From: Patescibacteria group bacterium
GTDB taxonomy: Bacteria > Patescibacteriota > Kazan-3B-28
Length of the DNA stretch: 64,000 nt
Reading direction: 5' to 3'
Assembly (NCBI GenBank): GCA_041649135.1
Contig: JBAZNQ010000001.1
Span: 99,037-163,036, forward strand
Shown: positions 6,630 to 59,686 of the stretch, in pieces
How positions within the stretch are numbered: the stretch's first letter is position 1
How the letters are laid out: every line of letters starts with the position of its first letter
Position numbers and translations under genes: made by a program
Notes under the pieces: model-generated
What the model was told of the DNA's origin: nothing
The model's input: the letters and a program-made list of their open reading frames with translations, nothing else
The model's database searches: none

Positions 6630-9600
6630 TTGCTAAATACACATACAGTCATGAGTAAATTGAAACAGGTAGCCACTCTTTTTTACTGGGTGACAGCTTT
6701 TGGCTTAGCGTTAGCGCCAATGCTAACCGCCACTCCAGCTTGGGCCACATATATTGATCCAACTGGCGGTCAACCAAGTGATATCGGCCCAGTGTGTAGT
6801 CCCGCTGTGGATTTGATCTCTAACGGCAGTTTCGAAGTGCCGGTAGTTGATAATGATTCCAACTGGGACATTTTCCCAAGCGACCCCAACAATGATTTAG
6901 GGAGTAACTTGTGGTGGGGCGCGGAATGGGTAGCCCCCGGCGAAGGTGCACCTAATTTTGCCAATCTTGAATTACAGAAAGCCCCGCTCAACGGCTGGTC
7001 TGCTCAAGCCGGCGATCAATGGGCAGAATTGGATACTGACTATGACGGCCCCGGTGGCAGCATCGGTGGCGAAGCCGCTTCCATCCGTCTGACCCAGAAT
7101 ATTAAAAACACCAAGGGAGGCTGTTATTATAATTTGGAATTTTATACTTTGCCTCGCCCCGGTTACGGTCCAGAAGATAATACTATCGAAGTCAGCTGGA
7201 ACGGTGTCGTAATCGATACAATTACTACAGATGGTTCGTCTCTTACTCAACCAGATTGGGCTTATCACCAATATACTGTTCAGGCCGATGATTTAACCGC
7301 CGATCTTTCCTTTACCGACATTGGCATTCCCAATTCCTTTGGGATGCTACTAGATAATGTTCAAATTCACTGCATCGAAGAAAAAACGACGATCGTTGCT
7401 CACAAAATTGTCTGTGATTCAGAAGAAGATTTGCCTAACTGGGGTATCGGTGGCGAACCAATTACTGCTACTACCGCCCAAGATTTTGTTACTTCCCGCC
7501 AAGGTAGATGTCATTTTCAGGCAGGCTGGCAGTTCCAATGGGCGCCAGAAGGTACTTCAAATCCCGGAGACACCATGATCGGAGAAGCGGGTGGTTGGAA
7601 CACCCTTCCCGCAACTGACGGAGATGGCAAGACAACGATTACTCTTACTGCCACCGACATTGCTGGTAGTAGCTATCTTTGGTTCCGTGAAGCCTTACTG
7701 GAAAACTATGTTCCGTTTAGTAGCTGGCTGTCTGATGGTTCGAACACTCCAAGTGCCGATGATGAATTTTCCGCTGAAGTTTATGCCACTACTGATGTAT
7801 TAAACTATGACAACTACGATCGGATCGAAGATGTTGAAAACGGTGGCATCAAGTTAGGTCAAACTTACTACGCCGTTGCGTTTAATGTTCTGGCCGAGCC
7901 AGAAGAAGATCCGTGTGATTTCGGCGAGCAGACCGGTTGGTTCGGCCAATACTATGATTACACCGCCAACCATCAGGACATGAACTTGCCGACTGGCGTC
8001 TGGCCAGACAAAACTCACGGTGATCCGTTGAGCAAGACTGCTACTTGGACGGCCGATTGGTATGATTCTGACTACTTTGTCAGAAGCCAAGTTGATCCTA
8101 GTCTTAATTTTGGGAACGATTTCTTCCCATTGGATAGTCCTGTACTCGTTGAAGACCCTGCTGGGAGCGGTCACAACTATCACTTCGGTGCGCATTGGAG
8201 CGGAAAGGTTACTGTTGGTACAGAAGGGGATTACAACTTTGCTCTCAAATCGGATGACGATGCTTGGGTTTATCTTGATGGCGAATTAATCAAAGACAAC
8301 TCTGGCATTCATCAGCCACAAGAGAATAATGGTTCGGCGCACATGACGGTCGGCACTCACATTGTCGATATCTTCTTCGCAGAACGGCATACGGTCCAGT
8401 CTTACATGGCATTTGCCTTTGAAAACCAAGACTTGCTGATTGTTCCATACAACGACGAGTGTCCCGTTCCAGTCCCGACCCTTTCGATCGATAAGACTGG
8501 CGTTTACGATCAGGCTGGTCAAATTGATTACACCATTACTTGGAGTGTTGAGGGTGAAGGCACACTCCATAACGTTACTATTACTGATGCTATTCCAGCT
8601 GGTACGACGTATGTGCCTAGTGATCCATCCGGTATCCCTGCCGCTGGAGTAGTAACTTGGATCTTGGGTGATAAAACCGCTCCAGATTCGGGTACCATTC
8701 ATCTAATTGTTTCAATCGATTCTTACGAACCATGGGCGGACAGTCACAGCGACTTTACCCAAGGTTTGCGCAAAGATAATACTCCAGTAGTTGAAGAAAG
8801 AAGCCACCCCGATAAAGCTCTGGGCGTAGCCGAAAACAATGACACAATTAATTTTGTTTCACTCGGCTTCGGCGGTAGTTTGGTGCTTCATTTCAACAAC
8901 TACATCTTAGACGGCGCTGGTGCTGATATCGCCGTTACCGAAACTAGCTATGGCGAGCCATCTGACACCAACTATCCGGAAAAAGTGGAAGTGTTTGCTT
9001 CCCAAACTGGTAATGGCACAGACTGGGTATCGCTTGGTAGGGGGATCCAAGACCAAGACTTCGATCTCAATGGCAGCGGTTTGGCTTGGGCTAGATATCT
9101 GAAATTGGTTGATGTCTCCAACAAGGCTGACGCTCATTTCCCAGCCGATGCCGATGGTTACGACATTGATGGGGTAGCGGCCTTACACTACGCGCCTGCC
9201 GAATGTTCAATTGATAATACCGTTCAAATGAGCGGCGATCCAGCATCAGATGATGTTCCGAAGATCGCTATGGTAGCAGTAGTTGATGACGGTCTAGTCC
9301 ACGCCAGCGATACCACTACTACCACTATTAGTGATATCTGTAATCCTCCCATCCCCGATGACCCAGAGGATACTCACACTCTGATTAGTGGAATGAAGTT
9401 CAACGACCATGATGGTGATGGTGATAAAGATGAAAATGATGGGGGACTGGCCGAATGGAAAATTTATGCCGCCCAATTAGCTGCTAGCTTTGAAGTCGAT
9501 TCACACGGCGATATTACTGGTACGCCAGTTGATTCACCAATTCTTGAGAACGGTGTGGAATATCTGATTCGTGTAAGCGATACCTTTAACGCTGGTGACT

Positions 9601-10658
9601 CCATTACCGCCGATGCTAAATATTCCATTCGCACCGGTAGTGAGTGGACTGATATAGTTGAAAACTACGTTGGATATGGTCCAGCCTTGCTTGATCTGCA
9701 GTTGGATGGCACATCTCCGAACTGGGGTAGTTACAGCCCAGCCCATATTTATTGGTATGCCATGACTGGTACAGGAGCGGCTGTTACATTCCAAATCTAT
9801 GACATTTTTGCTTCCAACAATGTTGGCACACTCGATGTCTCCCTGTATCGTGTCTTGGATTTCACTCTGACTGACGGAACTGGCAATTATTCATTTGATC
9901 TACTCAACGTCGAGGGTGATGTCATTATTGCCGAACAAAATCAAACTGGTTGGACCCAAACCGCTCCCGCTCCGGTTGACTACTATACTGTTCCATCTGG
10001 TGGAGAAGCTAGTAACCAAGATTTTGGTAACTACCAAATTCCAGCAGAGCCACGTCTTGGTTCGATCACTGGTATCAAATTCGAGGATCATGACGGTGAT
10101 GGCGTAAAAGACGGTAGTGATGATCAACCATTAGCCGGTTGGACTATCTACCTTGATGCCAATGACAATGGCAGTCTTGATAGCGGCGAATTGTCTGATG
10201 TAACTGATGATGCTGGTGTCTTTAGCTTCCCCAACCTCTCGGCTGGTACCTACATTGTTCGTGAAGTTTACCAAGATGGTTGGACCAAAACCTTCCCGAG
10301 TGCCTCGGCTTACAGCTTGATCATTGGAGATGGAGAGGGTAACGACTGGGATTGGATCGAGATCGATTTTGGTAACCATGAAGGCGTTGTCGACTCACAG
10401 GGCACAACTCCAACTGGTAGTTCAGGCAGTAGCAGCGGATATTACACTCCAGCGCCAACTCCTGATCCTGACGACGGAGATGTACTGGGCGAGCAAACTG
10501 GGAGCAACGGTAGTGGTAGCGGCGCTAGTGATGAAGCTGTCGGTGGCGAACAAACCCTGCCTGTTACTGGTACATCGCCATGGGTCATACCGGTAATGTT
10601 ACTATTAGCTCTTGCCGTACTACTAGTCGAATCTCGTTGGTCAAAACGTACAAATTAA
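6630..10658 (+). CDS. Giant LPXTG-anchored cell-surface protein (PA14 + DUF11 + SdrD-B/Cna-B-like repeats)
   Basis: Signal peptide. PA14-like segment (GDYNFALKSDDDAWVYLDGELI). DUF11-like (TLSIDKTGVYDQAGQIDYTITWSVEG...VTITDAIPAGTTYV). Two SdrD-B-like repeats (GxKFxDHDGDGxKD...LAGWxIY...G.Y.V.E). The C-terminus is LPVTG + hydrophobic stretch + SRWSKRTN, a classic sortase sorting signal. Confidence 0.85.
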   Translation: MLNTHTVMSKLKQVATLFYWVTAFGLALAPMLTATPAWATYIDPTGGQPSDIGPVCSPAVDLISNGSFEVPVVDNDSNWDIFPSDPNNDLGSNLWWGAEWVAPGEGAPNFANLELQKAPLNGWSAQAGDQWAELDTDYDGPGGSIGGEAASIRLTQNIKNTKGGCYYNLEFYTLPRPGYGPEDNTIEVSWNGVVIDTITTDGSSLTQPDWAYHQYTVQADDLTADLSFTDIGIPNSFGMLLDNVQIHCIEEKTTIVAHKIVCDSEEDLPNWGIGGEPITATTAQDFVTSRQGRCHFQAGWQFQWAPEGTSNPGDTMIGEAGGWNTLPATDGDGKTTITLTATDIAGSSYLWFREALLENYVPFSSWLSDGSNTPSADDEFSAEVYATTDVLNYDNYDRIEDVENGGIKLGQTYYAVAFNVLAEPEEDPCDFGEQTGWFGQYYDYTANHQDMNLPTGVWPDKTHGDPLSKTATWTADWYDSDYFVRSQVDPSLNFGNDFFPLDSPVLVEDPAGSGHNYHFGAHWSGKVTVGTEGDYNFALKSDDDAWVYLDGELIKDNSGIHQPQENNGSAHMTVGTHIVDIFFAERHTVQSYMAFAFENQDLLIVPYNDECPVPVPTLSIDKTGVYDQAGQIDYTITWSVEGEGTLHNVTITDAIPAGTTYVPSDPSGIPAAGVVTWILGDKTAPDSGTIHLIVSIDSYEPWADSHSDFTQGLRKDNTPVVEERSHPDKALGVAENNDTINFVSLGFGGSLVLHFNNYILDGAGADIAVTETSYGEPSDTNYPEKVEVFASQTGNGTDWVSLGRGIQDQDFDLNGSGLAWARYLKLVDVSNKADAHFPADADGYDIDGVAALHYAPAECSIDNTVQMSGDPASDDVPKIAMVAVVDDGLVHASDTTTTTISDICNPPIPDDPEDTHTLISGMKFNDHDGDGDKDENDGGLAEWKIYAAQLAASFEVDSHGDITGTPVDSPILENGVEYLIRVSDTFNAGDSITADAKYSIRTGSEWTDIVENYVGYGPALLDLQLDGTSPNWGSYSPAHIYWYAMTGTGAAVTFQIYDIFASNNVGTLDVSLYRVLDFTLTDGTGNYSFDLLNVEGDVIIAEQNQTGWTQTAPAPVDYYTVPSGGEASNQDFGNYQIPAEPRLGSITGIKFEDHDGDGVKDGSDDQPLAGWTIYLDANDNGSLDSGELSDVTDDAGVFSFPNLSAGTYIVREVYQDGWTKTFPSASAYSLIIGDGEGNDWDWIEIDFGNHEGVVDSQGTTPTGSSGSSSGYYTPAPTPDPDDGDVLGEQTGSNGSGSGASDEAVGGEQTLPVTGTSPWVIPVMLLLALAVLLVESRWSKRTN

Positions 10659-15306: not shown

Positions 15307-15376
15307 TCGTATAATGTTATGGCGGTATACTTTTTACTCGGTCATTCTAGGCGAAGCGAAGAATCTATAATTAACT

Positions 15377-15562
15377 CGTCATTCTGGCCTGCCTGCCGGT
15401 GGGCAGGTAAGTCCAGCCCCGAAGGTGCCCCGTTGGGGTAGGACGCATCCAGAATCTTCCTCTCGTCATTCCCGCGCCACCTTCTGTCATTCCCGCTCCA
15501 CTCTTCGTCATTCCCATTTCTCTCTTCGTCATTCCCGCGAAGGCGGGAATCCAGAAAAGAAC
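15377..15562. repeat. Composite array of MITE-like palindromic repeats (GTCATTC... family)
   Basis: gtcattctgg...ccagaatc unit, then four tandem tcgtcattccc half-sites ending in the full hairpin gtcattcccgcgaaggcgggaatccagaaaagaaca. Confidence 0.8.
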
Positions 15563-15579
15563 ATAAACTTTTAACTCTT

Positions 15580-15620
15580 CACTCTTCACTCTTCACTCTT
15601 CACTCTTCACTCTTCACTGC
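15580..15620. repeat. Tandem heptamer repeat (ctcttca) x6 directly upstream of the next start codon
   Basis: ctcttcactcttcactcttcactcttcactcttcactcttcact. Confidence 0.8.
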
Positions 15621-15627
15621 CCCCATT

Positions 15628-18045
15628 ATGTCTTACCCCGAATTTATTGTTTTAGATATCGAATCCACCGGCGTCGACTCCAAACACGACGACATTATTG
15701 AATTCTCTGCCGTCAAACTCAATGCTGCAGGTGAAATTATCGATCAACTCGATACTCTAGTTTCCACCAAACTTCTGCCACTTCGCCCACTAGTAGTTGC
15801 TCTGACTGGCATTAAAGATGAAGATTTTGAAGGTCAGCCGAATTTGGAAGCAGTCTTACCCAAAATCGAAGCCTTCTGCGGCGATTTGCCGATAGTGGGT
15901 CATAACATCAGTTTTGATGTTGAATTTTTACATGCCAAAGGGTTGAGCTTGAAAGGCGACTTGCTCGATACGTTGGAACTTGCCCAAACAGTTCTTACCA
16001 AACAACCAGCTTATAGTTTGGAAGGTCTCTGCTGGCGGTTCAATTTTCCCCATCAACCGTCTCATCGCGCTATGGCTGATGTTTTGGCTACTGTTGATTT
16101 AATGAAATTCCTAAGCCAGCAAATTGCCGATCTTAAAGCCGGTACGCGCAAAAAGGTTTTGGATACTCTGCCGGAAAAATCTTGGAACTGGCGTTGGCTG
16201 TTTGCAGAATCTTCTTTTGTCATCCCGAGCGAAGAACGTTCGACGTTCGGAGCGAAGAATCTAGGACAAAGTCCGCACATCACTCCCCACACGAGCAGTC
16301 TGATCGGCAGTCTCAATCAGGCTGAACAATTCTTACCAGACATCAAAACCGCTGAAACCGGCAAAATCAATTTTATTGAAACCCATTTTTCAATTGACCA
16401 ACTGTCCCTTGCCCTAGCTCACGCCATTGCCAAAAAACCGGCTGTATTAGTCGTGCCATTCAACGCTTGGCGAGAAATTGATTGGGAAGCAGTCGGCCAA
16501 GCCCATAACCTTAAACTGGCCGTTCGTGATCGCCAAGAATTTTTCTATCAGGCAGATAGTGAACTGGAATTGGCCAAATCTATGCCGTCCATTTCCGCTA
16601 CCGAAGCAAAATTGATCACCAAAGTTATCTTGTGGCGCAACGAATGGGGGAGCGACCCGTCAAAATTGTATCTGGTAAATGATGAGCTCTATCAATGGGA
16701 ACAAAAATTTGCTCCCATTGAAGTAAAAAAATCTCAACTTCCCGAACATGAAAAAGTTGATCTAATTATTGCCACCACCAGTTCCGTATTAGAGTTGGAA
16801 AATTTGGCAAGATACAATATCATCGTGCTTGATCCATTGAGTGTCGAGGAATCAGCGATGCGTATTAAATCTCGCACTCTGTCGTTAAATTACTTTAGCG
16901 CACTAGTTTCAAGTCGTCGGGATTTTGTACATCTCCAGATTCGTCCCAAAGATGTCAAACTGGCAGATTCATTATTCAAAATTCTTAACGATGTTAGTAG
17001 CAAACTTGCGGCTTTGAGCCCCATGTTGGTGGCGTGGTACGCCGCTAATCCGCCCAGCAATGTCTTTGACCGCAATACCGAACTCTCCGGTGTCAACATG
17101 ACTGATGAATTGCGCAGTCAGCTTGATCTGATCATCGAAGACTTATCGCAATATCTTGGTGTTATCATTGATGCTAAATTGCCCAATTCTAAATCACAGA
17201 TCGAACATACTGAAAAATTGATTATTCATTTAAAGGCTCTCGAAACAACGGATCCTAGCTTTAGATATTTCCTCAACGCGATCGAAAATCGATTCTATTT
17301 GGATATTCTTCCCGCTCATCCAGATTTTTCACTACTAGAGCGAATTTTAACAGATAGCAAATCCTGTACCGTGTTAGGCGCTGGTTTGTCCGTTCAGGGC
17401 AGGTTCAATTATTGGCACCAATCATTTGGTGAATTTAATAGTAAAGTGCTCAAAGACGATACCCCATTGGAATTATTGTTAGTGAAAGACTTGCCGGAAG
17501 GTGATGACTATCTGGAAGCGATCGGTAAATTTTCTAGCCAGATGATCGCCAACAATCCCTATTCACTCGTTTTAACTGGTTCCGCTTATGATACCGAAGA
17601 GCTCTTTGATTGGTTGTTGGCTCCCGTTACGGAAGCTGGGATCGCTCTCTCTAGCGCCAACACAACCAAAGCATTGGAGAAATTACCTGACCTAGTTGGC
17701 GCCAATCGGCATCTGGGAATTGTGGCTTACTATTGGTGGCTGGAACGAGCTCGGTTGTATTTACCAAATTTTGATTTGCTCCTGCTCGGCAAAATTCCTT
17801 TCGATCCCAACAGCCGACCGCAAGCCAAAGTGATGCAAGGGGATAATAACGGTTTCGATAGCTATACGATCCCGCGCACCACAATGAAACTCAAGGAGGT
17901 GCTTCATACTGCTTCTTTAATGAATTTCAAAACTCTAGTTTTAGCCGACAGTCGATTGGTGAAAAAAGATTATGGCGAACGGATCATCGGCTCCCTCGAA
18001 GGCTTCGTCGTCATTCCCCAAACTAGCAAAGAACTTCTCGGATAA
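15628..18045 (+). CDS. DnaQ-like 3'-5' exonuclease domain fused to a large DinG-like C-terminal region (helicase motifs not recognisable)
   Basis: N-terminal DEDDh motifs: VLDIESTGVD (Exo I), GHNISFDVEFL (Exo II), HRAMADV (Exo III). No Walker A seen in the 600-aa C-terminal part. Contains an in-frame MITE-like insert at 16219-16264. Confidence 0.55.
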   Translation: MSYPEFIVLDIESTGVDSKHDDIIEFSAVKLNAAGEIIDQLDTLVSTKLLPLRPLVVALTGIKDEDFEGQPNLEAVLPKIEAFCGDLPIVGHNISFDVEFLHAKGLSLKGDLLDTLELAQTVLTKQPAYSLEGLCWRFNFPHQPSHRAMADVLATVDLMKFLSQQIADLKAGTRKKVLDTLPEKSWNWRWLFAESSFVIPSEERSTFGAKNLGQSPHITPHTSSLIGSLNQAEQFLPDIKTAETGKINFIETHFSIDQLSLALAHAIAKKPAVLVVPFNAWREIDWEAVGQAHNLKLAVRDRQEFFYQADSELELAKSMPSISATEAKLITKVILWRNEWGSDPSKLYLVNDELYQWEQKFAPIEVKKSQLPEHEKVDLIIATTSSVLELENLARYNIIVLDPLSVEESAMRIKSRTLSLNYFSALVSSRRDFVHLQIRPKDVKLADSLFKILNDVSSKLAALSPMLVAWYAANPPSNVFDRNTELSGVNMTDELRSQLDLIIEDLSQYLGVIIDAKLPNSKSQIEHTEKLIIHLKALETTDPSFRYFLNAIENRFYLDILPAHPDFSLLERILTDSKSCTVLGAGLSVQGRFNYWHQSFGEFNSKVLKDDTPLELLLVKDLPEGDDYLEAIGKFSSQMIANNPYSLVLTGSAYDTEELFDWLLAPVTEAGIALSSANTTKALEKLPDLVGANRHLGIVAYYWWLERARLYLPNFDLLLLGKIPFDPNSRPQAKVMQGDNNGFDSYTIPRTTMKLKEVLHTASLMNFKTLVLADSRLVKKDYGERIIGSLEGFVVIPQTSKELLG

Positions 18046-23499: not shown

Positions 23500-23751
23500 A
23501 CACACCTGTAACTTTCAGCACAAGGCCCGCCGCAAGGCGGGCCTTTCACTTGTCCAAACGCCCATGGTCATACATAAATAATTTCGCCATTAGATGAACG
23601 ACCGTCCAGTATATTGCGAACATTTTAACCTCTATATGTCAAGTGACCATTCCTCCATTCCCCATTGGTTAGATTGGTGTAATCGGAAAAATTGATTAGA
23701 TTTGTCCCCATCCTCTAGATACTAGATGCTAAATGCTAGATACTAGTAAGT

Positions 23752-24164: not shown

Positions 24165-24252
24165 GTCATTCTGGTAAGCGAAGCGCATCCAGAATCGTAT
24201 AAAAAATTAAATAAGATTCTGGTCCCTGGCCGAGCAGGCAAGCCAGAATGAC
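24165..24252. repeat. MITE-like palindromic element (gtcattctgg ... gccagaatgac variant)
   Basis: gtcattctggtaagcgaagcgcatccagaatcgtat...aagattctggtccctggccgagcaggcaagccagaatgac. Confidence 0.75.
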
Positions 24253-25242: not shown

Positions 25243-25263
25243 ACTGTCACTTCTTGCTTTCTC

Positions 25264-25507
25264 TGTCATTCCCGCTCCACCTTTCGTTGTTCCCACCTCG
25301 CTCTTCGTCATTCCCGCGAAGGCGGGAATCCAGAAAAGAAAAAAGAACAACCCACAAAATGTCTGCTTATGTCTACATTCTTGCCAGCAATAAAAATGGC
25401 ATCGAGCATGGAAAATAAGAATCATTGAAGAGCAGAACCCGCAATGGAAAGATTTATTTCAAGAAATTTTAATTTAATGTCTGGATTCCCGCCTACGCGG
25501 GAATGAC
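25264..25507. mobile_element. Palindromic element carrying an internally deleted GIY-YIG gene remnant (degenerate copy of the 39.4-kb element)
   Basis: Left arm tgtcattcccgc...gtcattcccgcgaaggcgggaatccagaaaag and right arm ctggattcccgcctacgcgggaatgac. Between them, 25359-25477 encodes MSAYVYILASNKNG fused to ...QNPQWKDLFQEILI*. This is the N- and C-termini of the GIY-YIG protein, joined at an AAAAATGG microhomology. Confidence 0.75.
25359..25477 (+). pseudogene. GIY-YIG nuclease gene remnant (internal deletion)
   Basis: The first 14 codons and last about 20 codons are colinear with the CDS at 39515-39802; the middle about 170 nt is missing. Confidence 0.7.
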
Positions 25508-25512
25508 GAGTA

Positions 25513-28774: not shown

Positions 28775-29020
28775 AACGTAACCTCCTCCTTTTTACCACC
28801 GTAGTTAGGAAACCTATTCCAACCACTTGCCATTCTATCTCAACCCCGCTCCCAGTCAATTTTCCACTGTCATTGCGAGGAGCCCAGAGGTGTCGAGGGG
28901 CGACGCGGCAATCTACTTTTTGTCATATCCAAAATCTTGCTCCATAGGATAAAATCAGGTACAATTGAGGTAGCAATTTCGCCCCTAAGGCGACTTTCCG
29001 TATGGTCTTAATTACCTGTC

Positions 29021-29110
29021 ATTCCCGCGGAGGCGGGAATCCAGAAAAGAACAGAAAAATGTTTTTGTTTCTGTCTGGATCCCCAATCAAGTTGGGGATG
29101 ACGACTAAGA
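29021..29110. repeat. Full-length two-hairpin MITE-like element upstream of gyrB
   Basis: gtcattcccgcggaggcgggaatccagaaaagaacagaaaaatg tttttgtttctgtctggatcccc-aatcaagtt-ggggatgac; the right half is an imperfect reverse complement of the left. Confidence 0.8.
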
Positions 29111-29125
29111 AAAGTTTTATTACCA

Positions 29126-31174
29126 ATGCCTGACGACAATAAAAAAACTAGCGGTTCCTACGGTGCAAAAGATATTCAGGTCCTAGAAGGGCTTGAGCCA
29201 GTTCGCAAACGCCCCGGTATGTATATCGGCTCCACCTCGGTGGAGGGTCTTCACCATATGATTTGGGAGGTGGTCGATAACTCTATTGATGAAGCCATGG
29301 CCGGTCACGGCACGATGGTGGAAGTTATTATTCACAAAGACGGCAAGGTAACCGTGATTGATGATGGTCGCGGCATCCCAACCGAGATACATCCTCAAAC
29401 CAAGAAGTCCACCCTTGAAACTGTTTTAACCACTCTTCATGCCGGTGGTAAGTTCGGCGGCGAAGGTTACAAAGTTTCCGGTGGTTTACATGGTGTGGGC
29501 GTGTCAGTTGTCAACGCCCTGTCTGATTTTATGCGGGTAGAAGTAACCCGTGATGGCAAAACTCATGCCCAAGAATATTCCAAAGGTATCGCCACCAGTT
29601 CAGCCAAAGTGATCAACAAAGATGTCAAAGGACATGGTACAAAAATAACTTTTCATGCCGACAAAACCATCTTTGATGACAACGAAGGGTACGAATGGAA
29701 AACCGTTCTCGAACATTTGAAACAGCAAGCTTATCTCACCAAAGGCGTTTTTGTAAAAATTCACGATGAACGTTCGGGCGAATCGCAGGAATTCAAATTT
29801 GAAGGCGGAGTGCAGTCATATGTCGAAGATTTAGATAAAAACAAGACTCCGCTCTTCACTCCACCATTTTATATCGACAAAGAACGCAACAATGTCCAAG
29901 TTGAATTGTCGATTCAATACACGGAAGATTTTAATGAAACGCTCAAAGCTTTTGCTAATAATATTTACAATCCCGAAGGCGGAACTCACGTAATTGGTTT
30001 TCGTACCGCGTTAACTCGCATTTTAAATGCTTACGCTAAAAAAACGGGGATTATCAAAGAAGCGAAAGATGCTTTATCGGGCGACGATGTTCGCGAAGGT
30101 CTGACCGCCGTTATTTCTGTCAAACTGGCGAATCCCCAATTTGAAGGTCAGACTAAAGCCAAGTTGGGTAATGCCAATGTTCGGACTGCCGTCGATGCGG
30201 TAATGTCCGATTATTTCAATAACTACCTTGAGGAGCATCCTTCAGAAGCTCGTCGGATTATCAGTAAGACCATGTTGGCTGCCAGAGCCCGCCTAGCGGC
30301 GCGTCAGGCGCGTGAAACGGTACTGCGCAAAGGTATCCTCGAAGGTATGACCCTGCCGGGGAAACTAGCCGACTGTTCCAACCGAGATCCATCCAAATCA
30401 GAGATCTTCATTGTCGAGGGTGAGTCTGCCGGTGGTTCCGCCAAAAGTGGACGTGATCGTCAGTTCCAAGCTATTTTGCCTTTACGTGGGAAAATTTTGA
30501 ACGTAGAAAAAGCTCGGCTGGATCGCATGTTATCTTCCGAGGAAATTAAAGTTTTGATCATTGCCCTTGGTGCCGGTATTGCTGAACAATTCAATGTTGA
30601 TAAAATTCGTTACCATCGCGTAATTATTATGACTGATGCCGATGTTGATGGTGCGCACATTAGAACTTTGCTTTTGACTTTCTTCTACCGCTACATGCGC
30701 GCCATTATCGACCGCGGCTATCTCTATATTGGCCAGCCGCCACTGTATCAGCTTAAGTCTGGCAAAGATGTGCGCTGGGTTTATTCTGACGAAGAGAAGG
30801 ATAAAGTAATGAAAGACATGCAGGAAGCCGCTGCCAAGAAGAAGGAAGGCAAGAAAGCTAAGATGGAAACCGATGACACCGCCATCGTCATTCCCGCGGA
30901 GGCGGGAATCCAGACCGAAACAGAAACCATCGCCGAAGATTTGTCATCTACTAAAGGTATTGCGATCCAACGTTACAAAGGTCTTGGAGAAATGAATCCA
31001 AGCCAACTTTGGGAAACCACTATGGATCCTGCTAATCGGATTATTCACCGTGTTACTGTTGATGATGCCGAAATCGCTGATGACATCTTTTCCACCCTCA
31101 TGGGAGACGACGTTGCCCCCCGCAAGAAATTCATCGAAGATAACGCCCAATTCGTCCAGAATCTGGACGTGTAA
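29126..31174 (+). CDS. gyrB: DNA gyrase subunit B, carrying an in-frame repeat-derived insertion
   Basis: GHKL ATPase motifs (EVVDNSIDEA, GLHGVGVSVVNALS), TOPRIM (EGESAGGSAK, IMTDADVDGAHI), C-terminal QRYKGLGEMN. Codons VIPAEAGIQ at 30886-30913 are encoded by gtcattcccgcggaggcgggaatccag. Confidence 0.9.
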   Translation: MPDDNKKTSGSYGAKDIQVLEGLEPVRKRPGMYIGSTSVEGLHHMIWEVVDNSIDEAMAGHGTMVEVIIHKDGKVTVIDDGRGIPTEIHPQTKKSTLETVLTTLHAGGKFGGEGYKVSGGLHGVGVSVVNALSDFMRVEVTRDGKTHAQEYSKGIATSSAKVINKDVKGHGTKITFHADKTIFDDNEGYEWKTVLEHLKQQAYLTKGVFVKIHDERSGESQEFKFEGGVQSYVEDLDKNKTPLFTPPFYIDKERNNVQVELSIQYTEDFNETLKAFANNIYNPEGGTHVIGFRTALTRILNAYAKKTGIIKEAKDALSGDDVREGLTAVISVKLANPQFEGQTKAKLGNANVRTAVDAVMSDYFNNYLEEHPSEARRIISKTMLAARARLAARQARETVLRKGILEGMTLPGKLADCSNRDPSKSEIFIVEGESAGGSAKSGRDRQFQAILPLRGKILNVEKARLDRMLSSEEIKVLIIALGAGIAEQFNVDKIRYHRVIIMTDADVDGAHIRTLLLTFFYRYMRAIIDRGYLYIGQPPLYQLKSGKDVRWVYSDEEKDKVMKDMQEAAAKKKEGKKAKMETDDTAIVIPAEAGIQTETETIAEDLSSTKGIAIQRYKGLGEMNPSQLWETTMDPANRIIHRVTVDDAEIADDIFSTLMGDDVAPRKKFIEDNAQFVQNLDV

Positions 31175-32770: not shown

Positions 32771-32878
32771 TAGTTAACAGTTAATAGTGAACAGTTAAGG
32801 AAAAATTATTTAATAAATTGTCGCTTGCGACACCAAAACTATTCACCCTTCACTTTTAACTTTTCACTGACTTTCGCT

Positions 32879-34545: not shown

Positions 34546-34572
34546 AAAAAACCGCCACAGGCGGCTACCAAA
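34546..34572 (-). terminator. Terminator for rpmA (T-run on minus strand), possibly bidirectional
   Basis: Minus-strand reading ggtagccgcctgtggcggttttttgtg. Confidence 0.55.
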
Positions 34573-34607
34573 ATTATTCACTATTCACTTTTAACTATTG
34601 ACCCGTC

Positions 34608-39439: not shown

Positions 39440-39833
39440 TTCGTCATTCCCGCTCCACTCTTCGTCATTCCCGCGTAGGCGGGAATCCAGAAAGAAAAAA
39501 TAACAATCTATGAAATGTCTGCTTATGTCTACATCTTAGCCAATGGCAAAAATGGGACCTTATACACCGGCGTGACAGTACCATTGGTCAAGAGGGTGTA
39601 CGAACACAAGAGCAAATTTATTTCTGGATTCGCTGAACAATACAACGCAACCGACCTAGTCTATTACGAAATATTTGACGATATAGAAAACGCTATTCTT
39701 CGCGAAAAACATATCAAAAAATGGCATCGAGAATGGAAAATTAAATTGATCGAGAAAAATAATCCACAATGGAAAGATCTATACCAAGAAATTTTAGTTT
39801 AATGTCTGGATTCCCGCCTTTGCGGGAATGACG
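39440..39833. mobile_element. Full-length palindromic element carrying an intact GIY-YIG nuclease gene; candidate autonomous parent of the MITE family
   Basis: Left arm ttcgtcattcccgctccactcttcgtcattcccgcgtaggcgggaatccagaaag; right arm tctggattcccgcctttgcgggaatgac; 288-nt ORF in between. Confidence 0.7.
39515..39802 (+). CDS. GIY-YIG nuclease superfamily protein (YhbQ/UPF0213-like, 95 aa)
   Basis: MSAYVYILANGKNGTLYTGVTVPLVKRVYEHK (GIY-N10-YTG motif with a conserved R and E); a remnant paralog at 25359-25477. Confidence 0.75.
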   Translation: MSAYVYILANGKNGTLYTGVTVPLVKRVYEHKSKFISGFAEQYNATDLVYYEIFDDIENAILREKHIKKWHREWKIKLIEKNNPQWKDLYQEILV

Positions 39834-39883
39834 AACGTATGGCCAAGTGGTGGAATGGTATAGTGCACCCCATAAAATTTTTT

Positions 39884-39970
39884 GGCTCGGTGGCGGAACT
39901 GGTATACGCGCACGACTCAAAATCGTGTATCCGCAAGGATGTGTGGGTTCGATTCCCACCCGAGCCACCA
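39884..39970 (+). tRNA. tRNA-Leu (anticodon CAA), class II with long variable arm, CCA encoded
   Basis: Acceptor GGCTCGG/CCGAGCC, anticodon stem-loop cacga-CTCAAAA-tcgtg, 16-nt variable arm, T-arm tgggTTCGATTccca, ACCA end. Confidence 0.8.
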
Positions 39971-44582: not shown

Positions 44583-44716
44583 GAGAAAAATCTCATCAAT
44601 CTAACCAAAAAGGAAGTGGAGAGGAGGATGGAAATTCGACAATTCGCCAGAATGACGAGCTTTTTATTTTTATCTTTGCCCCTAGCTACTAGCTACTAGC
44701 TACTAGATACTAGATA

Positions 44717-46147
44717 CTAGATACTGACTGTACTAGATACTAGATACTGTCCAAGCCCGCCAAAGATATTGGAATCATTCTGACGCAAAATTAGTTCAAC
44801 CAATTTGTTGGCTTTTAACAGCCAGATTTTTTTCGCATCACTTCCAAGGTAAACTGTAGTTTTGTTAACATCAGCTACTGTATAAACATTTGTTCCGCTA
44901 ACGTCGCTAACGTTAAGTTGATTATTAGTAGTTAAAAACAAGCTTTCATCTTGTTTGCCTAGCAATTCAACTGCGGCGGGGAAATTTTTTAGTGTCATTT
45001 CAGTTTGATTAACGAAATTATGGCTCATTAAATTCCGACCAACCGTATAAAACAATCTTGGTTTCAAATTATGATGTTCGTAGTAAACGTCACCGATATT
45101 GCTAGCTACTTTTGTCCAAATCGGAACTTCGTTTTTTCCAACAACAGTTTTATCCCACAACCACAACCCCGCTGTGCTGTTTTTAGCCGTTACGATAATT
45201 CTCTCGTCATTCACAAAGACGATTTCGTAGCTTTTTCCGACCGGCAAATCGTTAGTTACCGCTTCTCCCGCTTTGTCATCAAACAAATTACTGTCTCGCA
45301 TCAGCGAAATACTTCCGTTACTGTTACGAATAATGTAGTACAACCGACTATTACTATAAGACGCCCCTAAAATATTTTTAGCGTAAAGGTTTATTCGGTT
45401 GAGATTCAGATCAACTGCATATACTGTCGTCCCCATTACTGCCATTAGTCGATCATTGTCTAACCAGCTTAATTTTTCTGCCGTTGCTTGATTCAGGGGG
45501 CTACCAAATAACTGCCCTCGATAACCTTCTTGAAAATCGGCTACCACTAACCATTTTCTTCCCCCTGAAATCACTCCCAACGCCCAAGTATTGCCATCCG
45601 ACTTTTTGGCCAAATACACGTCAGTCGTTGCCTGCAACACACTTTTTACATTGGCTGGTAATCGGCTAAAGTCCAGCGGCGTCGCTGTACCGTTAGCGTA
45701 TTTGATAAATTTTCGGTCTTTCGAAAAATATAATAAATCGTTTCCCACGCTAATTACTCGCTGGGCATCCTCTACCAAAATTTGACTCGGAATATCGGTC
45801 AGCACCAAATCCAAGTTGTGTTCTTCTACCACTTGTCTTGATGCCACGTCTATGGTTTTAAAAAACGGCCGATAATCCTTCAGCTCCAATTTGATATTAT
45901 ATGCCCCCGGCAGAACATTGCGCATTGTAATTGGGGTCAGCCGGGAGGTTTTATGATCATTAATGTATACCGTTGCTCCGCTTGGTTTACTGCTGATTGC
46001 CAACACACCAGTCTTCTGGATCGTCCAAGTCGCCAAATCCAGCCGATAGCCGGTCGCGTATCCTATGGCATAGACTGCCACCACGATGAAAACCAACGTG
46101 GACAGCACATAAGCCAGCAGTGTCGGCCAATTTTTCTGATAGGTCAT
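44717..46147 (-). CDS. Membrane-anchored PEGA-domain protein with beta-rich C-terminal region
   Basis: N-terminal TM; PEGA-like SSKPSGATVYINDHKTSRLTPITMRNVLPGAYNIKLELKDYRPF. Confidence 0.55.
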   Translation of the reverse strand: MTYQKNWPTLLAYVLSTLVFIVVAVYAIGYATGYRLDLATWTIQKTGVLAISSKPSGATVYINDHKTSRLTPITMRNVLPGAYNIKLELKDYRPFFKTIDVASRQVVEEHNLDLVLTDIPSQILVEDAQRVISVGNDLLYFSKDRKFIKYANGTATPLDFSRLPANVKSVLQATTDVYLAKKSDGNTWALGVISGGRKWLVVADFQEGYRGQLFGSPLNQATAEKLSWLDNDRLMAVMGTTVYAVDLNLNRINLYAKNILGASYSNSRLYYIIRNSNGSISLMRDSNLFDDKAGEAVTNDLPVGKSYEIVFVNDERIIVTAKNSTAGLWLWDKTVVGKNEVPIWTKVASNIGDVYYEHHNLKPRLFYTVGRNLMSHNFVNQTEMTLKNFPAAVELLGKQDESLFLTTNNQLNVSDVSGTNVYTVADVNKTTVYLGSDAKKIWLLKANKLVELILRQNDSNIFGGLGQYLVSSTVSI

Positions 46148-47430: not shown

Positions 47431-47504
47431 TATTTATTTGTCTAGTCATCCGCCAGCTAATGAATCCTTTCTCTCTTCTGCCATCCCACGTCCTTCCTTT
47501 TTGT

Positions 47505-47605
47505 CATCCTGAACTTGATTCAGGATCCAGCCAGAAACAACAAACAAAACTCTTTTTCTTTTCTTGTCTAGATTCCGGGTCAAGCCCGGAATGACAAAAT
47601 AAATA
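47505..47605. repeat. Full-length MITE-like element (gtcatcctgaac...ccggaatgac variant)
   Basis: ttgtcatcctgaacttgattcaggatccagccagaaacaac...cttgtctagattccgggtcaagcccggaatgacaaa. Confidence 0.75.
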
Positions 47606-47658: not shown

Positions 47659-48816
47659 ATGTCTAATCCAAAAATTGCCATCGTTCACGACTTCCTCCAA
47701 TCCTTCGGTGGTGCCGAAAGAGTTACTTTGGCGATCAGCGATCTTTATCCCGATGCGCCGATCTATTCTTTGACTTACGATATCAAGCTCAATCCTTGGT
47801 TCGGTAAAAGAAAAATCCTCACGTCCTATTTGCAAAAATGGAGCTGGGTTCCGGCTAAATTTTTAATCCCGTTTTATGCTCAAGCGATTGAGAGTTTTGA
47901 TTTTAATGATTTTGACGTAGTTATTTCTAGTTCTCATTCATTCGCGAAAAATATTCTTACCAATCCGGACACAATTCACATTTCCTATATTCATTCGCCG
48001 ATGCGTTACGTTTGGGATGCGTGGCACTCTTATTTAGCTGGTCAGCGAGTTAGTCGTTTGAATGGGATTTTAGGAGTAGGGTTAGTCCGCAATACTGTTG
48101 TCAATATTCTGCACCATTTGCGACTTTGGGATCGGCTGGGTGCATCGCGGGTAGACCAATTTGTGGCTAATTCCCACTACGTGGCGGATCGTATCCGCAA
48201 ATTTTATCGTCGGGAATCAATTGTTATTTACCCACCAGTTGATACTGATAAAATTCAAATTTCTCACGAGCATAAAAATTACTTCATCGCCATTGCTCGC
48301 TTAAGCCAGTACAAGCGACTAGATTTAGTCGTCCAAGCTTGTAATGAATTAAATCTGCCATTAATAGTTATCGGTACTGGTGAAATGGAAGCCGAATTAA
48401 AAAAACTAGCTGGGCCGACAGTCACTATTACTGGCTGGATCAGCGACGAACAAAAGATTAAATATATTGAAAGTGCTCGCGCCCTAATTTTCCCTGCCGA
48501 AGAAGATTTTGGAATTGTACCGGTGGAAATTCAAGCGGCTGGTAAACCAGTGATAGCCTTTGGCAAAGGCGGCTGTTTGGAAACTGTAATTGATGGCGAA
48601 ACCGGCATCTTTTTCCCTGAACAGACGGTAGAAAGTCTTAAATTAGCTATCCAAAAATTTATTCAAATCGAGTCGACTTTCGATCCAGCTACCATTTCCC
48701 AGCACGCTCAACAATTTTCTCGTCAACGTTTCCAAACTGAACTTAGAAAACTAGTTGAAGAAAAATTAGCAGAGCATAGTTTTCGTCATCCTCTGGCTTG
48801 CGTCAGTCCTCCGTAG
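47659..48816 (+). CDS. Glycosyltransferase family 4 (GT-B)
   Basis: EEDFGIVPVEIQAAGKPVIAFGKGGCLETV. Confidence 0.8.
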   Translation: MSNPKIAIVHDFLQSFGGAERVTLAISDLYPDAPIYSLTYDIKLNPWFGKRKILTSYLQKWSWVPAKFLIPFYAQAIESFDFNDFDVVISSSHSFAKNILTNPDTIHISYIHSPMRYVWDAWHSYLAGQRVSRLNGILGVGLVRNTVVNILHHLRLWDRLGASRVDQFVANSHYVADRIRKFYRRESIVIYPPVDTDKIQISHEHKNYFIAIARLSQYKRLDLVVQACNELNLPLIVIGTGEMEAELKKLAGPTVTITGWISDEQKIKYIESARALIFPAEEDFGIVPVEIQAAGKPVIAFGKGGCLETVIDGETGIFFPEQTVESLKLAIQKFIQIESTFDPATISQHAQQFSRQRFQTELRKLVEEKLAEHSFRHPLACVSPP

Positions 48817-48867
48817 CTCAACGAGCGAAGGATGGAACCAGAGGATCCAGTCCCACCCTTTGTTATT

Positions 48868-49040
48868 CTCGGACTTGATCCGAGAATCCAGAAAAGAACA
48901 GAAAAAATGTTTTTGTTTCTGGCTGGATTCCCCAATCAAGTTGGGAAATGACAACAGAAACTTAAGAATAACCAAAAGTCCACCGTCATTCTGGTAAGGT
49001 CGACGCAGCGACCGCATCCAGAATCGTATAAGTGACGATG
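48868..49040. repeat. Two adjacent MITE-like elements
   Basis: ctcggacttgatccgagaatccagaaaagaacagaaaaaatgtttttgtttctggctggattcccc...gggaaatgac followed by gtcattctggtaaggtcgacgcagcgaccgcatccagaatcgtat. Confidence 0.75.
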
Positions 49041-49094
49041 TACACCATTCCTCATTTTCTCTGGCTTGTGTCAGTCATGTGTAGCTTGTCAGAG

Positions 49095-49260
49095 CGCAAT
49101 GGTCATCCTCGAGCTGAGTGCCGTAGGCAACTCGACGTCGGGGACCCAGACAGAAACAGCCAACAAAAACTTTTTCTTTTTTGTCTGGATTCCCGCCTAC
49201 CTGCCCGAAGTGCTACACCGTTGCAGGCGGGCGCGGGAATGACGAAGAGGAGGGCTCATA
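49095..49260. repeat. MITE-like element (gtcatcctcgag...gggaatgac variant)
   Basis: cgtcatcctcgagctgagtgccgtaggcaactcgacgtcggggacccagacagaaacag...ttgtctggattcccgcctacc...gcgggaatgacg. Confidence 0.75.
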
Positions 49261-49277
49261 ATGACAAAATATTAACT

Positions 49278-50150
49278 ATGGAAAATCGTAAAACAATTAA
49301 AATTTTAGGTACTAAAGTCGATTGCTTAACTTTGCCACAAGCTTTGCGGCGAATTGTGGATTTGGTGCGAGGGCGAAAAAATTATTATATTGTCACCCCC
49401 AATCCAGAAATGGTGATGTACGCCGATTCTCACCCTTGGTTTAAGGAAGTTCTGAATAACGCCGATCTAGCTCTGGCTGACGGTGTCGGCCTACAATGGG
49501 CGGCTAAATATTTATCTTTTCCGCTAACTAAAATCCCAGTATTAAAGCAGGTTCAAGAATTCTTCCAATTTATCTTTACTCTGCCGTTGGTTGTTTTAGC
49601 ACCCAAATTATTGAACGTAATTCCGGAACGACTAACTGGCGCTGATATGGTGTGGGAAATTGCCAAACTTGCTTCCGAACGCGATTACCGGATTTTTCTG
49701 CTAGGAGCTGGACCGGGGGTTGCCTTAAAAGCGGCCAGAACTATGCAAGCGCTCTACCCTCAACTCAATGTGGTAGAAATTATGGTTGGGCCGCCCTATG
49801 AATCGCAAGAAGAAGTTATCCGGGCAATTCAACAAACTAAACCTCAATTTATTTTTCTAGCTTTTCCGGCCGAAGAACAAATGCGCTGGATGCGTGATGA
49901 ATTACCAAAACTACAAGATGTCATCGCGATCGGTATCGGTGGCGCGTTGGACTTTATCGCCGGAGGCACGGCTATCAATGCCGGTCAGGACAAATCTCCC
50001 GCCAAAAGAGCCCCCGAATGGATGCGAGAAAGGGGATTGGAATGGTTTTATCGTTATATTACTCAACCGTGGCGCAAAAAGCGCATCCAGACCGCTACAA
50101 TTGACTTCGTAAAAAAAGTCAGACAATATAAAGCCGAATCTTGCACCTGA
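49278..50150 (+). CDS. WecB/TagA/CpsF-family glycosyltransferase (GT26)
   Basis: ALADGVGLQWAAKY, IFLLGAGPGVALKAA, RAPEWMRERGLEWFYRYITQPWRKKR; start at ATG 49278 (the ORF from 49032 runs through repeat sequence). Confidence 0.8.
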   Translation: MENRKTIKILGTKVDCLTLPQALRRIVDLVRGRKNYYIVTPNPEMVMYADSHPWFKEVLNNADLALADGVGLQWAAKYLSFPLTKIPVLKQVQEFFQFIFTLPLVVLAPKLLNVIPERLTGADMVWEIAKLASERDYRIFLLGAGPGVALKAARTMQALYPQLNVVEIMVGPPYESQEEVIRAIQQTKPQFIFLAFPAEEQMRWMRDELPKLQDVIAIGIGGALDFIAGGTAINAGQDKSPAKRAPEWMRERGLEWFYRYITQPWRKKRIQTATIDFVKKVRQYKAESCT

Positions 50151-59399: not shown

Positions 59400-59510
59400 G
59401 TCATTCTGGCAAGCCCCCTCCGTCATTCTGGTAATTCTGCCGTACGGCAGAAGCGACCAGAATCGTAGAAAATATATTTATAAGATTCTGGCCAAGCCAG
59501 AATGACACAA
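59400..59510. repeat. MITE-like element array (gtcattctgg ... ccagaatgac)
   Basis: gtcattctggcaagccccctccgtcattctggtaattctgccgtacggcagaagcgaccagaatcgtag...aagattctggccaagccagaatgac. Confidence 0.75.
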
Positions 59511-59686
59511 ACAAAAAACAGCGCCGCAGGCACCACCAAAACTTTTTCATCGCAGATCCTTCGACCTGTCCGCCATAGCTTTAGCGACGGAGGAAGCCTT
59601 GGCGGAGGAGGACCATTCACTTTTAACTTTCTGCTATCTCAAATTATTCACTGTTCACTATTCACTTTTAACTTTTCATTATCTCT

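Follow-up and report, generated by a model that had tools for sequence, protein, structure and literature searches.

In-frame copies of the dispersed NTS/SRM/CGTC-1 hairpin repeat in gyrB and gltX of a Patescibacteria genome that also carries a predicted Ssn-type nuclease gene

In a 64,000-nt stretch of a Patescibacteria metagenome-assembled genome (MAG) near ‘candidate division Kazan’ (45.9% G+C; hereafter the window), short repeats lie in frame inside gyrB and gltX, which encode DNA gyrase subunit B (GyrB) and glutamyl-tRNA synthetase (GluRS), and a decayed relative lies inside the gene for a DnaQ-like protein. These in-gene segments are very probably copies of a dispersed hairpin family, described elsewhere as NTS, SRM and CGTC-1, that their hosts carry as tolerated passengers. 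An earlier reading of the letters alone (the sequence-only reading) had reported three palindromic units inserted in frame in these genes. None of the three genes is frameshifted, and the gyrB unit is real, lies where it had been placed (30886-30913) and encodes VIPAEAGIQ in frame. The gltX unit is likewise real and in frame, encoding VIPAKAGI, with its 24-nt core at 51634-51657, 10 nt below the 51644-51667 that had been given for it. At the DnaQ-like site the 46 nt are present, in frame and lineage-specific, and they turn out to be a different, decayed unit that is not palindromic (folding z = +0.5). Four points had no counterpart in that reading: NTS/SRM is the target of Ssn nucleases, a cognate gene lies in the window, the third site is decayed, and a further unit contacts a glycosyltransferase family 4 (GT4) gene. 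Window GyrB and GluRS are 100% identical to proteins annotated in a MAG near candidate division Kazan, GyrB under the name DNA topoisomerase subunit B. The three genes and their units are as follows.

29126-31174, + strand: gyrB, intact open reading frame (ORF) of 682 aa (Pfam HATPase_c, DNA_gyraseB, Toprim and DNA_gyraseB_C)
30886-30913, + strand: NTS-type unit in gyrB, CGTCATTCCCGCGGAGGCGGGAATCCAG, with the 24-mer at 30887-30910; the frame reads (I)VIPAEAGIQ
50917-52233, + strand: gltX, intact ORF of 438 aa (Pfam tRNA-synt_1c and Anticodon_2)
51624-51660, + strand: SRM/NTS unit in gltX, TGTCATTCCCGCGAAGGCGGGAATCTAT, with the pyrimidine-rich 5′ flank TCTTCTTCT; the frame reads SSSVIPAKAGIY
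15628-18045, + strand: DnaQ-family exonuclease with a long C-terminal region, 805 aa (Pfam RNase_T at residues 7-158)
16219-16264, + strand: decayed SRM-like unit in the DnaQ-like ORF, VIPSEERSTFGAKNL, 46 nt and in frame, with the ends TGTCATCC... and ...GAATCTAG

The unit is a hairpin of 24-28 nt, (C/T)GTCATTCCCGCG-NAG-GCGGGAATC(CAG), and five of its six reading frames are open. Its 24-mer, GTCATTCCCGCG-N-AGGCGGGAATC, occurs eight times in the window with at most one mismatch, against 0.00 copies expected from 100 dinucleotide shuffles. A broader search, for GTC followed by one stem arm whose pairing partner lies downstream and stops before a C, returned 35 units, against 5.1 ± 1.9 in shuffles; after nested hits were merged and mismatched hits within ORFs removed, 23 of the 35 stood as bona fide units. 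These start with (C/T)GTCAT(T/C)C and end with (G/A)ATC(C/T)AG, and the stems and loops between differ widely. The NTS consensus, the 28-nt sequence CGTCATTCCCGCGMAVGCGGGAATCYRG that includes the dRS3 motif ATTCCC-N8-GGGAAT, is matched exactly by the copies at 15527 and 25306; the gyrB copy departs from it by one mismatch in the loop (position 14) and the gltX copy by two at the outermost positions (1 and 28), and all four contain ATTCCC-N8-GGGAAT. The degenerate SRM search pattern of Chenal et al. 2025 (PMC11893778), HGTCWYN(0-2)YYVSBRHN(0-5)WNVSBRGN(0-2)RNCYNB, gave eight hits in the window against 0.21 expected, one of them (inside an ORF at 6630-10658) probably due to chance. Six NTS copies, that of gltX among them, match this pattern and the DnaQ-like unit does not; the gyrB copy and the copy at 29018 miss it only at the start of the loop, where they have G and the pattern calls for H, and loop identity is not essential to Ssn cleavage (PMC11893778).

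The same units can be read in the CGTC-1 layout, CGTC-ATTCCCGC-GAAG-GCGGGAAT-CCA, as a tag, an 8-bp stem from AT, a 4-nt loop and a tail. CGTC-1 repeats are defined by a CGTC or TGTC tag, an 8-bp stem from AT, a 4-nt loop and a CCA tail, occur mostly as head-to-head dimers, and are regarded as the same family as dRS3 of Neisseria and RPE-6 of R. conorii (Di Nocera, De Gregorio & Rocco, BMC Genomics 2013, PMC3733652). Head-to-head doublets with inverted ends lie in the window at 29017-29102, 24165-24252, 47503-47595 and 59422-59506. Judged by sequence, the unit family is that of Neisseria dRS3/NTS, SRM and the CGTC-1 REP, including Rickettsia RPE-6. In the literature, the DNA string of the unit was found in Neisseria and Francisella constructs, which led to the dRS3 and Ssn work; a literature search for the peptide VIPAKAGIQ gave nothing useful.

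The gyrB unit opens with GTC at 30887 (codon 588) and as single-stranded DNA (ssDNA) folds into a hairpin with an 8-bp stem at -9.4 kcal/mol (z -2.9). It is followed by CAGACCGAAACAGAAAC (to ~30927, encoding QTETET), a segment that resembles the spacer after intergenic units and may belong to the insert, so that the repeat-derived part of GyrB is only ~9-14 aa (VIPAEAGIQ, possibly with TETET). Among 60 aligned Patescibacteria homologues the unit is present in P0001, P0002 and P0009 and nearly intact also in P0010, which has an extra half unit (83-88% protein identity); its loop is expanded by 30 nt in L002/P0005, the unit has decayed in P0003 and P0006, and it is absent from P0004, P0007, P0008 and P0012 (83-86% identity) and from all homologues at 75% identity or less. 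The sequence-only reading had set the repeat within a ‘lysine-rich C-terminal insertion’. This calls for a correction: a K/E-rich linker of variable length is found in 60/60 Patescibacteria GyrBs, so it is ancestral to the group and not repeat-derived. When the C-terminal part of GyrB was aligned with E. coli GyrB by HMMER, query residues 1-103 matched 452-555 and 150-224 matched 730-804, and the insert falls in the unaligned segment between E. coli residues 555 and 730, the site of the ~170-aa E. coli insertion. The alignment thus points to a permissive, hypervariable linker as the position of the insert.

Two variants of the gyrB unit in relatives are of note in their own right. At L002:10001-12109 the expanded unit has the form GTCATTCCCGCGGA-cctgtcctccatagccttggcgaaggaggg-GGCGGGAATCCAG, reads VIPADLSSIALAKEGAGIQ and folds at -12.2 kcal/mol, which suggests nested hairpin growth within a coding region. 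In the GyrB relative P0010 the half unit is duplicated in frame (SSVIPASSSVIPAEAGIQ).

In gltX the GTC of the unit is codon 240, and the ssDNA hairpin again has an 8-bp stem (-8.9 kcal/mol, z -4.0). In an alignment of 120 GluRS homologues, the window’s included, VIPAKAGI is unique to the window and absent from all 119 others. The window has GWSDPSSSVIPAKAGIYS in the position of the relatives’ GWSDPENREFLT; 39 nt replace 21, and the protein is 6 aa longer on balance. Solved structures show a 6-7 residue gap opposite the insert, right after the LGWS motif. An AlphaFold2 model built with 60 homologues has a mean predicted local distance difference test score (pLDDT) of 95, with its lowest blocks at residues 201-210 (77; the KMSKR motif) and 231-250 (81 and 77; the insert), and the insert is accordingly modelled as a permissive, low-confidence surface loop. 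In a distant lineage (L125/P0140) the same GluRS loop holds a different SRM unit, TCTGTCATCCGTCAGCTGACGGATCCA, that reads SVIRQLTDP; it marks a second, independent event in one GluRS loop. Other short lineage-specific inserts were seen in GluRS P0146, P0149, P0155, P0158, P0202, P0209 and P0213-P0216, right after KMSKR (e.g. RTASAGSPQAGD and RMASAIRQAHGAEQSRSTGLPQAGE) and in the LGWS loop (SGISPQRGGN...). The DNA of the SGISPQRGGN insert (L126:6001-7416) contains the weak palindrome CGCCTC-AGA-GAGGCG, and this insert may have begun as a repeat unit, now decayed and read in a different frame.

At the DnaQ-like site only the ends of the unit resemble the repeat family. Between them GAGCGAAG is duplicated around the small palindrome AACGTTCGACGTT, and as ssDNA the unit forms no stable hairpin, folding no better than shuffles. 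Its nearest relative in the window is the unit at 15341-15367. Three syntenic loci of relatives (L001, L002 and L003; GyrB 83-85% identical) encode DnaQ-like orthologues of 793-794 aa that lack a net 11 aa (33 nt) of the insert. For the host protein itself, the NCBIfam dinG_rel and DEDD exonuclease models reach the N-terminal domain only, with scores below their cut-offs.

The lineage specificity that the sequence-only reading proposed is thus borne out by orthologue alignment, the inserts being absent from the GyrB relatives named above, the 119 GluRS and the three syntenic DnaQ-like proteins, and so is the placement in variable loops, given the unaligned GyrB linker and, in GluRS, the gap against structures with its local pLDDT drop. 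These data effectively refute the view that the resemblance is coincidental or ancestral and the peptides native to their proteins. GyrBs of this group do have a long linker of low complexity that could give rise to many sequences; set against this are an identity to the unit over 24-28 nt where 0 chance matches are expected, the absence of the inserts from orthologues near and far and from the solved sequences of GluRS and GyrB, and an identical 27-mer in unrelated phyla.

It is also very unlikely that the inserts are artefacts of metagenome assembly, produced by chimeric joins or by collapse at shared repeats. Three facts would suit such an origin: the DNA comes from a MAG, the unit is present in many copies, and the gltX and DnaQ-like inserts each come from a single assembly. 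The gyrB insert, however, recurs in independent assemblies from different samples (P0002, P0005, P0009 and P0010) and has lineage-specific variants, namely the loop expansion in L002 and the extra half unit in P0010. All three inserts keep the frame and collinearity with relatives on both sides, and a 24-nt repeat lies far below read length, so no misjoin that restores the same gene downstream is expected from it.

A third bona fide unit with a coding contact lies at the 3′ end of the GT4 gene.

48785-48847, + strand: long-loop SRM-like unit at the 3′ end of the GT4 glycosyltransferase ORF (47659-48816)

It provides the last ~10 codons of the GT4 gene (RHPLACVSPP) and its stop; GT4 relatives stop about 8-9 aa earlier and have unrelated tails. 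Coding contacts thus involve three of the 23 bona fide units (gyrB, gltX and the GT4 3′ end), a strong depletion given that ORFs cover 78% of the window (binomial P = 6e-11). The unit at 49188-49243 had been a candidate for a further coding copy, in an ORF at 49032-50150. Alignment with relatives puts the true start of this TagA-like gene ~83 codons downstream, so the unit is intergenic and was ruled out as coding.

The family is the known target of Ssn nucleases. NTS motifs flank ssnA, a gene for a single-domain GIY-YIG protein of ~94 aa (Chenal et al., Nat Commun 2025, PMC11893778), and SsnA of Neisseria and Wolbachia binds the forward hairpin strand as ssDNA and cuts it a few nt upstream (PMC11893778). 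What matters most is GTC in front of the stem and C behind it, and loop extension is tolerated for cleavage (PMC11893778). The NTS-ssnA-NTS arrangement has been likened to an insertion sequence, and Chenal et al. hypothesized, on the model of REP/RAYT and IS200/IS605, that units disperse as single strands, through cut-and-paste or through copying (PMC11893778). The window contains one complete and one decayed cassette of this kind.

39443-39833, + strand: complete NTS-ssn-NTS cassette between glyA (serine hydroxymethyltransferase, SHMT) and tRNA-Leu, with a half unit at 39443-39462
39463-39490, 39515-39802 and 39806-39833: parts of this cassette, in order NTS(+), a 95-aa GIY-YIG ORF and NTS(-)
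25265-25508, + strand: decayed cassette between pheS and pheT, with half units, NTS(+) at 25306-25333 and NTS(-) at 25481-25508

The 95-aa ORF is intact and consists of a GIY-YIG domain (Pfam, residues 3-76, E 3.3e-15) with no second domain. Tyrosines Y6 and Y17 (in GTLY) and glutamate E64 (in REK) stand at the SsnA positions in the window protein and four homologues; these are the residues mutated in N. meningitidis SsnA (PMC11893778), homology to which, at E < 1e-10, served Chenal et al. as their criterion for Ssn proteins. The window protein is 50-58% identical (E 2e-28 to 2e-31) to homologues that adjoin identical NTS, found in Methylotenera and at two further loci, one of them in an uncultured gammaproteobacterial MAG. 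A PDB search gave a weak hit only (UPF0213 BH0048, E 0.012), and in the NCBIfam search no model matched.

Comparison of the same sites across the syntenic loci revealed turnover of these cassettes. Between pheS and pheT, L001 is empty, with overlapping stop and start (TAATG); L002 has an intact NTS-ssn-NTS cassette with a 95-aa gene; the window has a cassette whose ssn is an internally deleted remnant (MSAYVYILASNKNG joined to IEHGK and a stop); and in L003 two other SRM-like units form a doublet. Between glyA and tRNA-Leu, the site is empty in L001 and L003, occupied by an SRM doublet in L002 and by the intact cassette in the window. Finding empty, occupied and decayed states at orthologous sites of close relatives means that the cassette and its derivatives behave as mobile or recombinogenic DNA. 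At 39838-39862, between the cassette and the intact tRNA-Leu(CAA) at 39884-39970, we observed a fragment identical to the 5′ part of the relatives’ tRNA-Leu (ATGGCCAAGTGGTGGAATGGTATA); in L001 and L003 the tRNA-Leu follows glyA directly. The fragment beside the cassette suggests a rearrangement or partial tRNA duplication tied to cassette insertion. An Rfam search of the window found two tRNAs only.

Two intergenic arrangements of units lie just upstream of host genes.

15463-15554, + strand: half-unit array just upstream of the DnaQ-like gene, with 21-nt half units (TCGTCATTCCCGC plus 8 nt), ending in the exact-consensus NTS at 15527-15554
29017-29102, + strand: head-to-head doublet just upstream of gyrB, with NTS(+), an A/T-rich palindromic spacer and a different SRM unit on the - strand, GTCATCCCCAACTTGATTGGGGATCCAG

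The doublet looks like an ‘empty’ cassette. Half units, each made of the CGTC tag, the left stem arm (TCGTCATTCCCGC) and ~8 pyrimidine-rich nt, stand in tandem before the 5′ NTS of ssn cassettes and at the DnaQ-like array (15463-15527, 25263-25305 and 39441-39462). Such tandems could have been left by rounds of cutting and repair on the upstream side of the hairpin; the available parts of PMC11893778 and PMC3733652 yielded no description of them. A pyrimidine-rich, TCTTCT-like 5′ flank accompanies units in genes as well as between genes, from which we speculate that the mobile unit may start near the expected Ssn cut site. We also considered a role as terminators, which the sequence makes unlikely, as the forward-strand runs after units are A-rich and not T-rich.

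These observations fit a course of events in which units would disperse by a single-strand process linked to Ssn, or by recombination between copies, and would occasionally land in coding DNA. Selection would then act as a filter, such that copies surviving in essential genes are those that keep the frame, contain no stop and occupy a permissive loop; as only such copies survive, the inserts are best seen as tolerated passengers that would add 6-14 residues to surface loops. They would afterwards decay like the linker around them, having placed an Ssn recognition site on the coding strand of their host genes. Di Nocera et al. held that inactivating insertions are purged (PMC3733652), a view that fits the window data.

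The same intragenic units might instead have been kept because they are useful, either as Ssn sites that limit replacement of gyrB and gltX alleles or through tuning of mRNA, translation or the enzymes. On the first of these views, incoming homologous ssDNA or exposed lagging-strand template would be cut within gyrB and gltX, which would limit allele replacement by transformation as proposed for NTS-flanked genes in Neisseria. There is something to be said for it: SsnA of N. meningitidis lowers transformation ~5-fold for NTS-bearing DNA (PMC11893778), the gyrB and gltX units keep both the critical GTC before the stem and C after it and a stable ssDNA hairpin, the gyrB unit is nearly intact across 83-88% protein identity (P0001, P0002, P0009 and P0010), and the four independent events of this clade all use a single strand and a single frame. 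We nevertheless regard it as unlikely. The gyrB unit is decaying or lost in sister lineages (P0003, P0006, P0004, P0007/8 and P0012), the DnaQ-like copy has already lost its hairpin, the gltX insert occurs in 1/120 homologues only, units are strongly depleted in coding DNA, and intragenic NTS elsewhere use other frames and the opposite strand.

Several points weigh against reading the inserts as dispersed passengers of an Ssn-linked family. In a neighbour-joining tree of GyrB, carriers interleave with non-carriers inside the clade at or above 83% identity, a pattern that a single old gain with later decay and losses would explain as well as several separate gains would. The gltX and DnaQ-like inserts are each known from one assembly only. 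The 95-aa window protein is a predicted Ssn-type nuclease whose link to SsnA/cd10448 is indirect. At the pheS-pheT and glyA-tRNA junctions, comparison with the empty sites showed no target-site duplication or transposition scar, and the gltX and DnaQ-like events resemble insertion with replacement, which makes recombination or gene conversion inseparable from transposition. Finally, the neutral passenger is our default reading, and a benefit to the host is possible.

The unit is widespread beyond this lineage. At least 120 genome stretches, spread over many phyla, contain the exact 27-mer GTCATTCCCGCGNAGGCGGGAATCCAG; hosts among the matches listed include Neisseria, a Rickettsia endosymbiont, many Pseudomonadota, Planctomycetota, Chloroflexota, Nitrospirales, Zixiibacteriota, Cloacimonas, Saccharibacteria, another Patescibacteria MAG and a Nanoarchaeota MAG. 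The 27-mer is likewise present in at least 120 IMG/VR contigs (putatively viral or prophage; L127-L206), some with 5 copies, and phages might carry units, or ssn, between phyla. From a sample of 144 exact NTS copies in other phyla, with Pfam support demanded of the host protein, we obtained the following in-frame cases.

L026:965-2716, - strand: DNA methylase of a Nanoarchaeota MAG, reading VIPAQAGIQ
L049:1458-4454, + strand: class I aminoacyl-tRNA synthetase of a Sphingomonadales MAG, HSRAGGNP frame
L069:862-4272, - strand: isoleucyl-tRNA synthetase of a Rickettsia endosymbiont, inverted doublet
L027:1255-2295, - strand: TruB of a Pseudomonadota MAG, unit on the opposite strand, reading LDSRLRGND

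Long open frames at NTS in high-GC genomes (L022, L023, L030, L032, L078, L081 and L089) were set aside, having no Pfam domain or one that starts after the unit. The four independent intragenic events in our clade all lie on the coding strand in one shared frame; as a general rule of frame and strand this was rejected, the intragenic copies of other phyla in the 144-copy sample using other frames and the opposite strand. The clade pattern, with its TCTTCT-like flank and two events in one GluRS loop, leads us to mention a further idea that we think improbable: that entry of units into coding DNA is mechanistically directed and that Ssn sites inside single-copy essential genes serve as a self/non-self or anti-replacement device. 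If this is true, the transformation-control model drawn from Neisseria would come to cover intragenic sites and would reach the candidate phyla radiation (CPR), bacteria thought to depend on DNA uptake.

With the passenger reading as our preferred one, the window can be compared with known systems. It shares with NTS/SRM-Ssn the 28-nt sequence (two copies exact, others 1-2 bases off), the directional, non-palindromic flanks on the hairpin, the NTS-ssn-NTS order, the many gene-less copies and doublets, and the enlarged-loop variants. It differs in host, a Patescibacteria (CPR) MAG, a phylum without mention in the available text of PMC11893778, which used RefSeq reference genomes. It differs also in that 2/8 NTS copies lie in essential genes, whereas NTS are rarely intragenic (2% in N. 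meningitidis 8013; PMC11893778) and the available text of that paper contains no discussion of in-frame copies. Turnover, which PMC11893778 only hypothesized, is seen here by comparison, and the nuclease here is a predicted one.

With CGTC-1 the window units have tag, stem, loop, tail, dimers and intragenic copies in common. CGTC repeats were reported from 5 phyla, with Alphaproteobacteria predominating, and ‘apparently lack a dedicated transposase’ (PMC3733652); the window differs in adding a new phylum and an adjacent Ssn gene. In-frame intragenic CGTC/GTAG REPs have been found in genes for DNA synthesis, replication and repair, in tRNA synthetases and in TruB (PMC3733652), and gyrB and gltX are not among the examples in the main text of that paper as available to us, its supplementary list aside. 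The parallel that the sequence-only reading drew with Rickettsia palindromic elements (RPEs) is closer than analogy, CGTC-1 having been equated with RPE-6; of the RPEs, only RPE-6 and RPE-4 belong to the CGTC super-family (PMC3733652). RPEs are described, in the available part of PMC3733652 citing Ogata et al. 2000, as in-frame palindromic repeats in genes that stay functional. Common to both are a palindromic repeat in frame, an intact ORF, an added peptide and a reduced genome, and we infer protein function here. RPE-1 units are ~100-150 bp long, in contrast to the 24-46 nt of the present units, and unrelated to them in sequence.

REP/REPIN-RAYT systems resemble the window in their single and inverted-doublet hairpins, in a cognate gene between inverted copies (REPtron-like) and in recognition of an ssDNA hairpin; they differ in that the tag here is CGTC/TGTC and not GTAG, and the gene here is GIY-YIG and not an HUH/Y1 transposase. 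The flanked gene is not a RAYT, and the other window ORFs had no systematic RAYT screen. Ssn, for its part, is not known to carry out strand transfer. Classical MITEs are defined by terminal inverted repeats together with a target-site duplication; the ends of the window doublets are inverted, while the pheS-pheT and glyA-tRNA junctions, set against their empty counterparts, display no duplication.

The repeat family, its nuclease (the 2025 Ssn link) and in-frame intragenic copies (2013) were already known, and no new kind of system is revealed here. New are the Patescibacteria host, gyrB and gltX as hosts (the 2013 supplementary list aside), the recurrently used GluRS loop and the evidence for cassette turnover. 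The Ssn/NTS pair is thereby extended to Patescibacteria and, by the 27-mer scan, to DPANN archaea, and the NTS-ssn-NTS cassette is seen to turn over like a mobile element, with empty, occupied, decayed and substituted orthologous sites. Streamlined genomes tolerate such units inside gyrB and gltX, and the sites show which loops of these enzymes can take insertions. The family also explains, for the purposes of annotation, the recurrence of VIPAKAGIQ, SFPRRRES, HSREGGNP, LDSRLRGND and WIPAFAGMT in ‘hypothetical proteins’ and conserved enzymes.

Other short intergenic motifs in the window, at 15575-15616, 23713-23745, 44694-44749, 32832-32867, 34567-34602 and 59612-59685, are unrelated to the CGTC units. 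They comprise a run of the heptamer CTCTTCA, ACTAGAT-type runs and TTCACT(T/A)TTAAC-type boxes; possibly they are motifs that this lineage has in its promoter or terminator regions.

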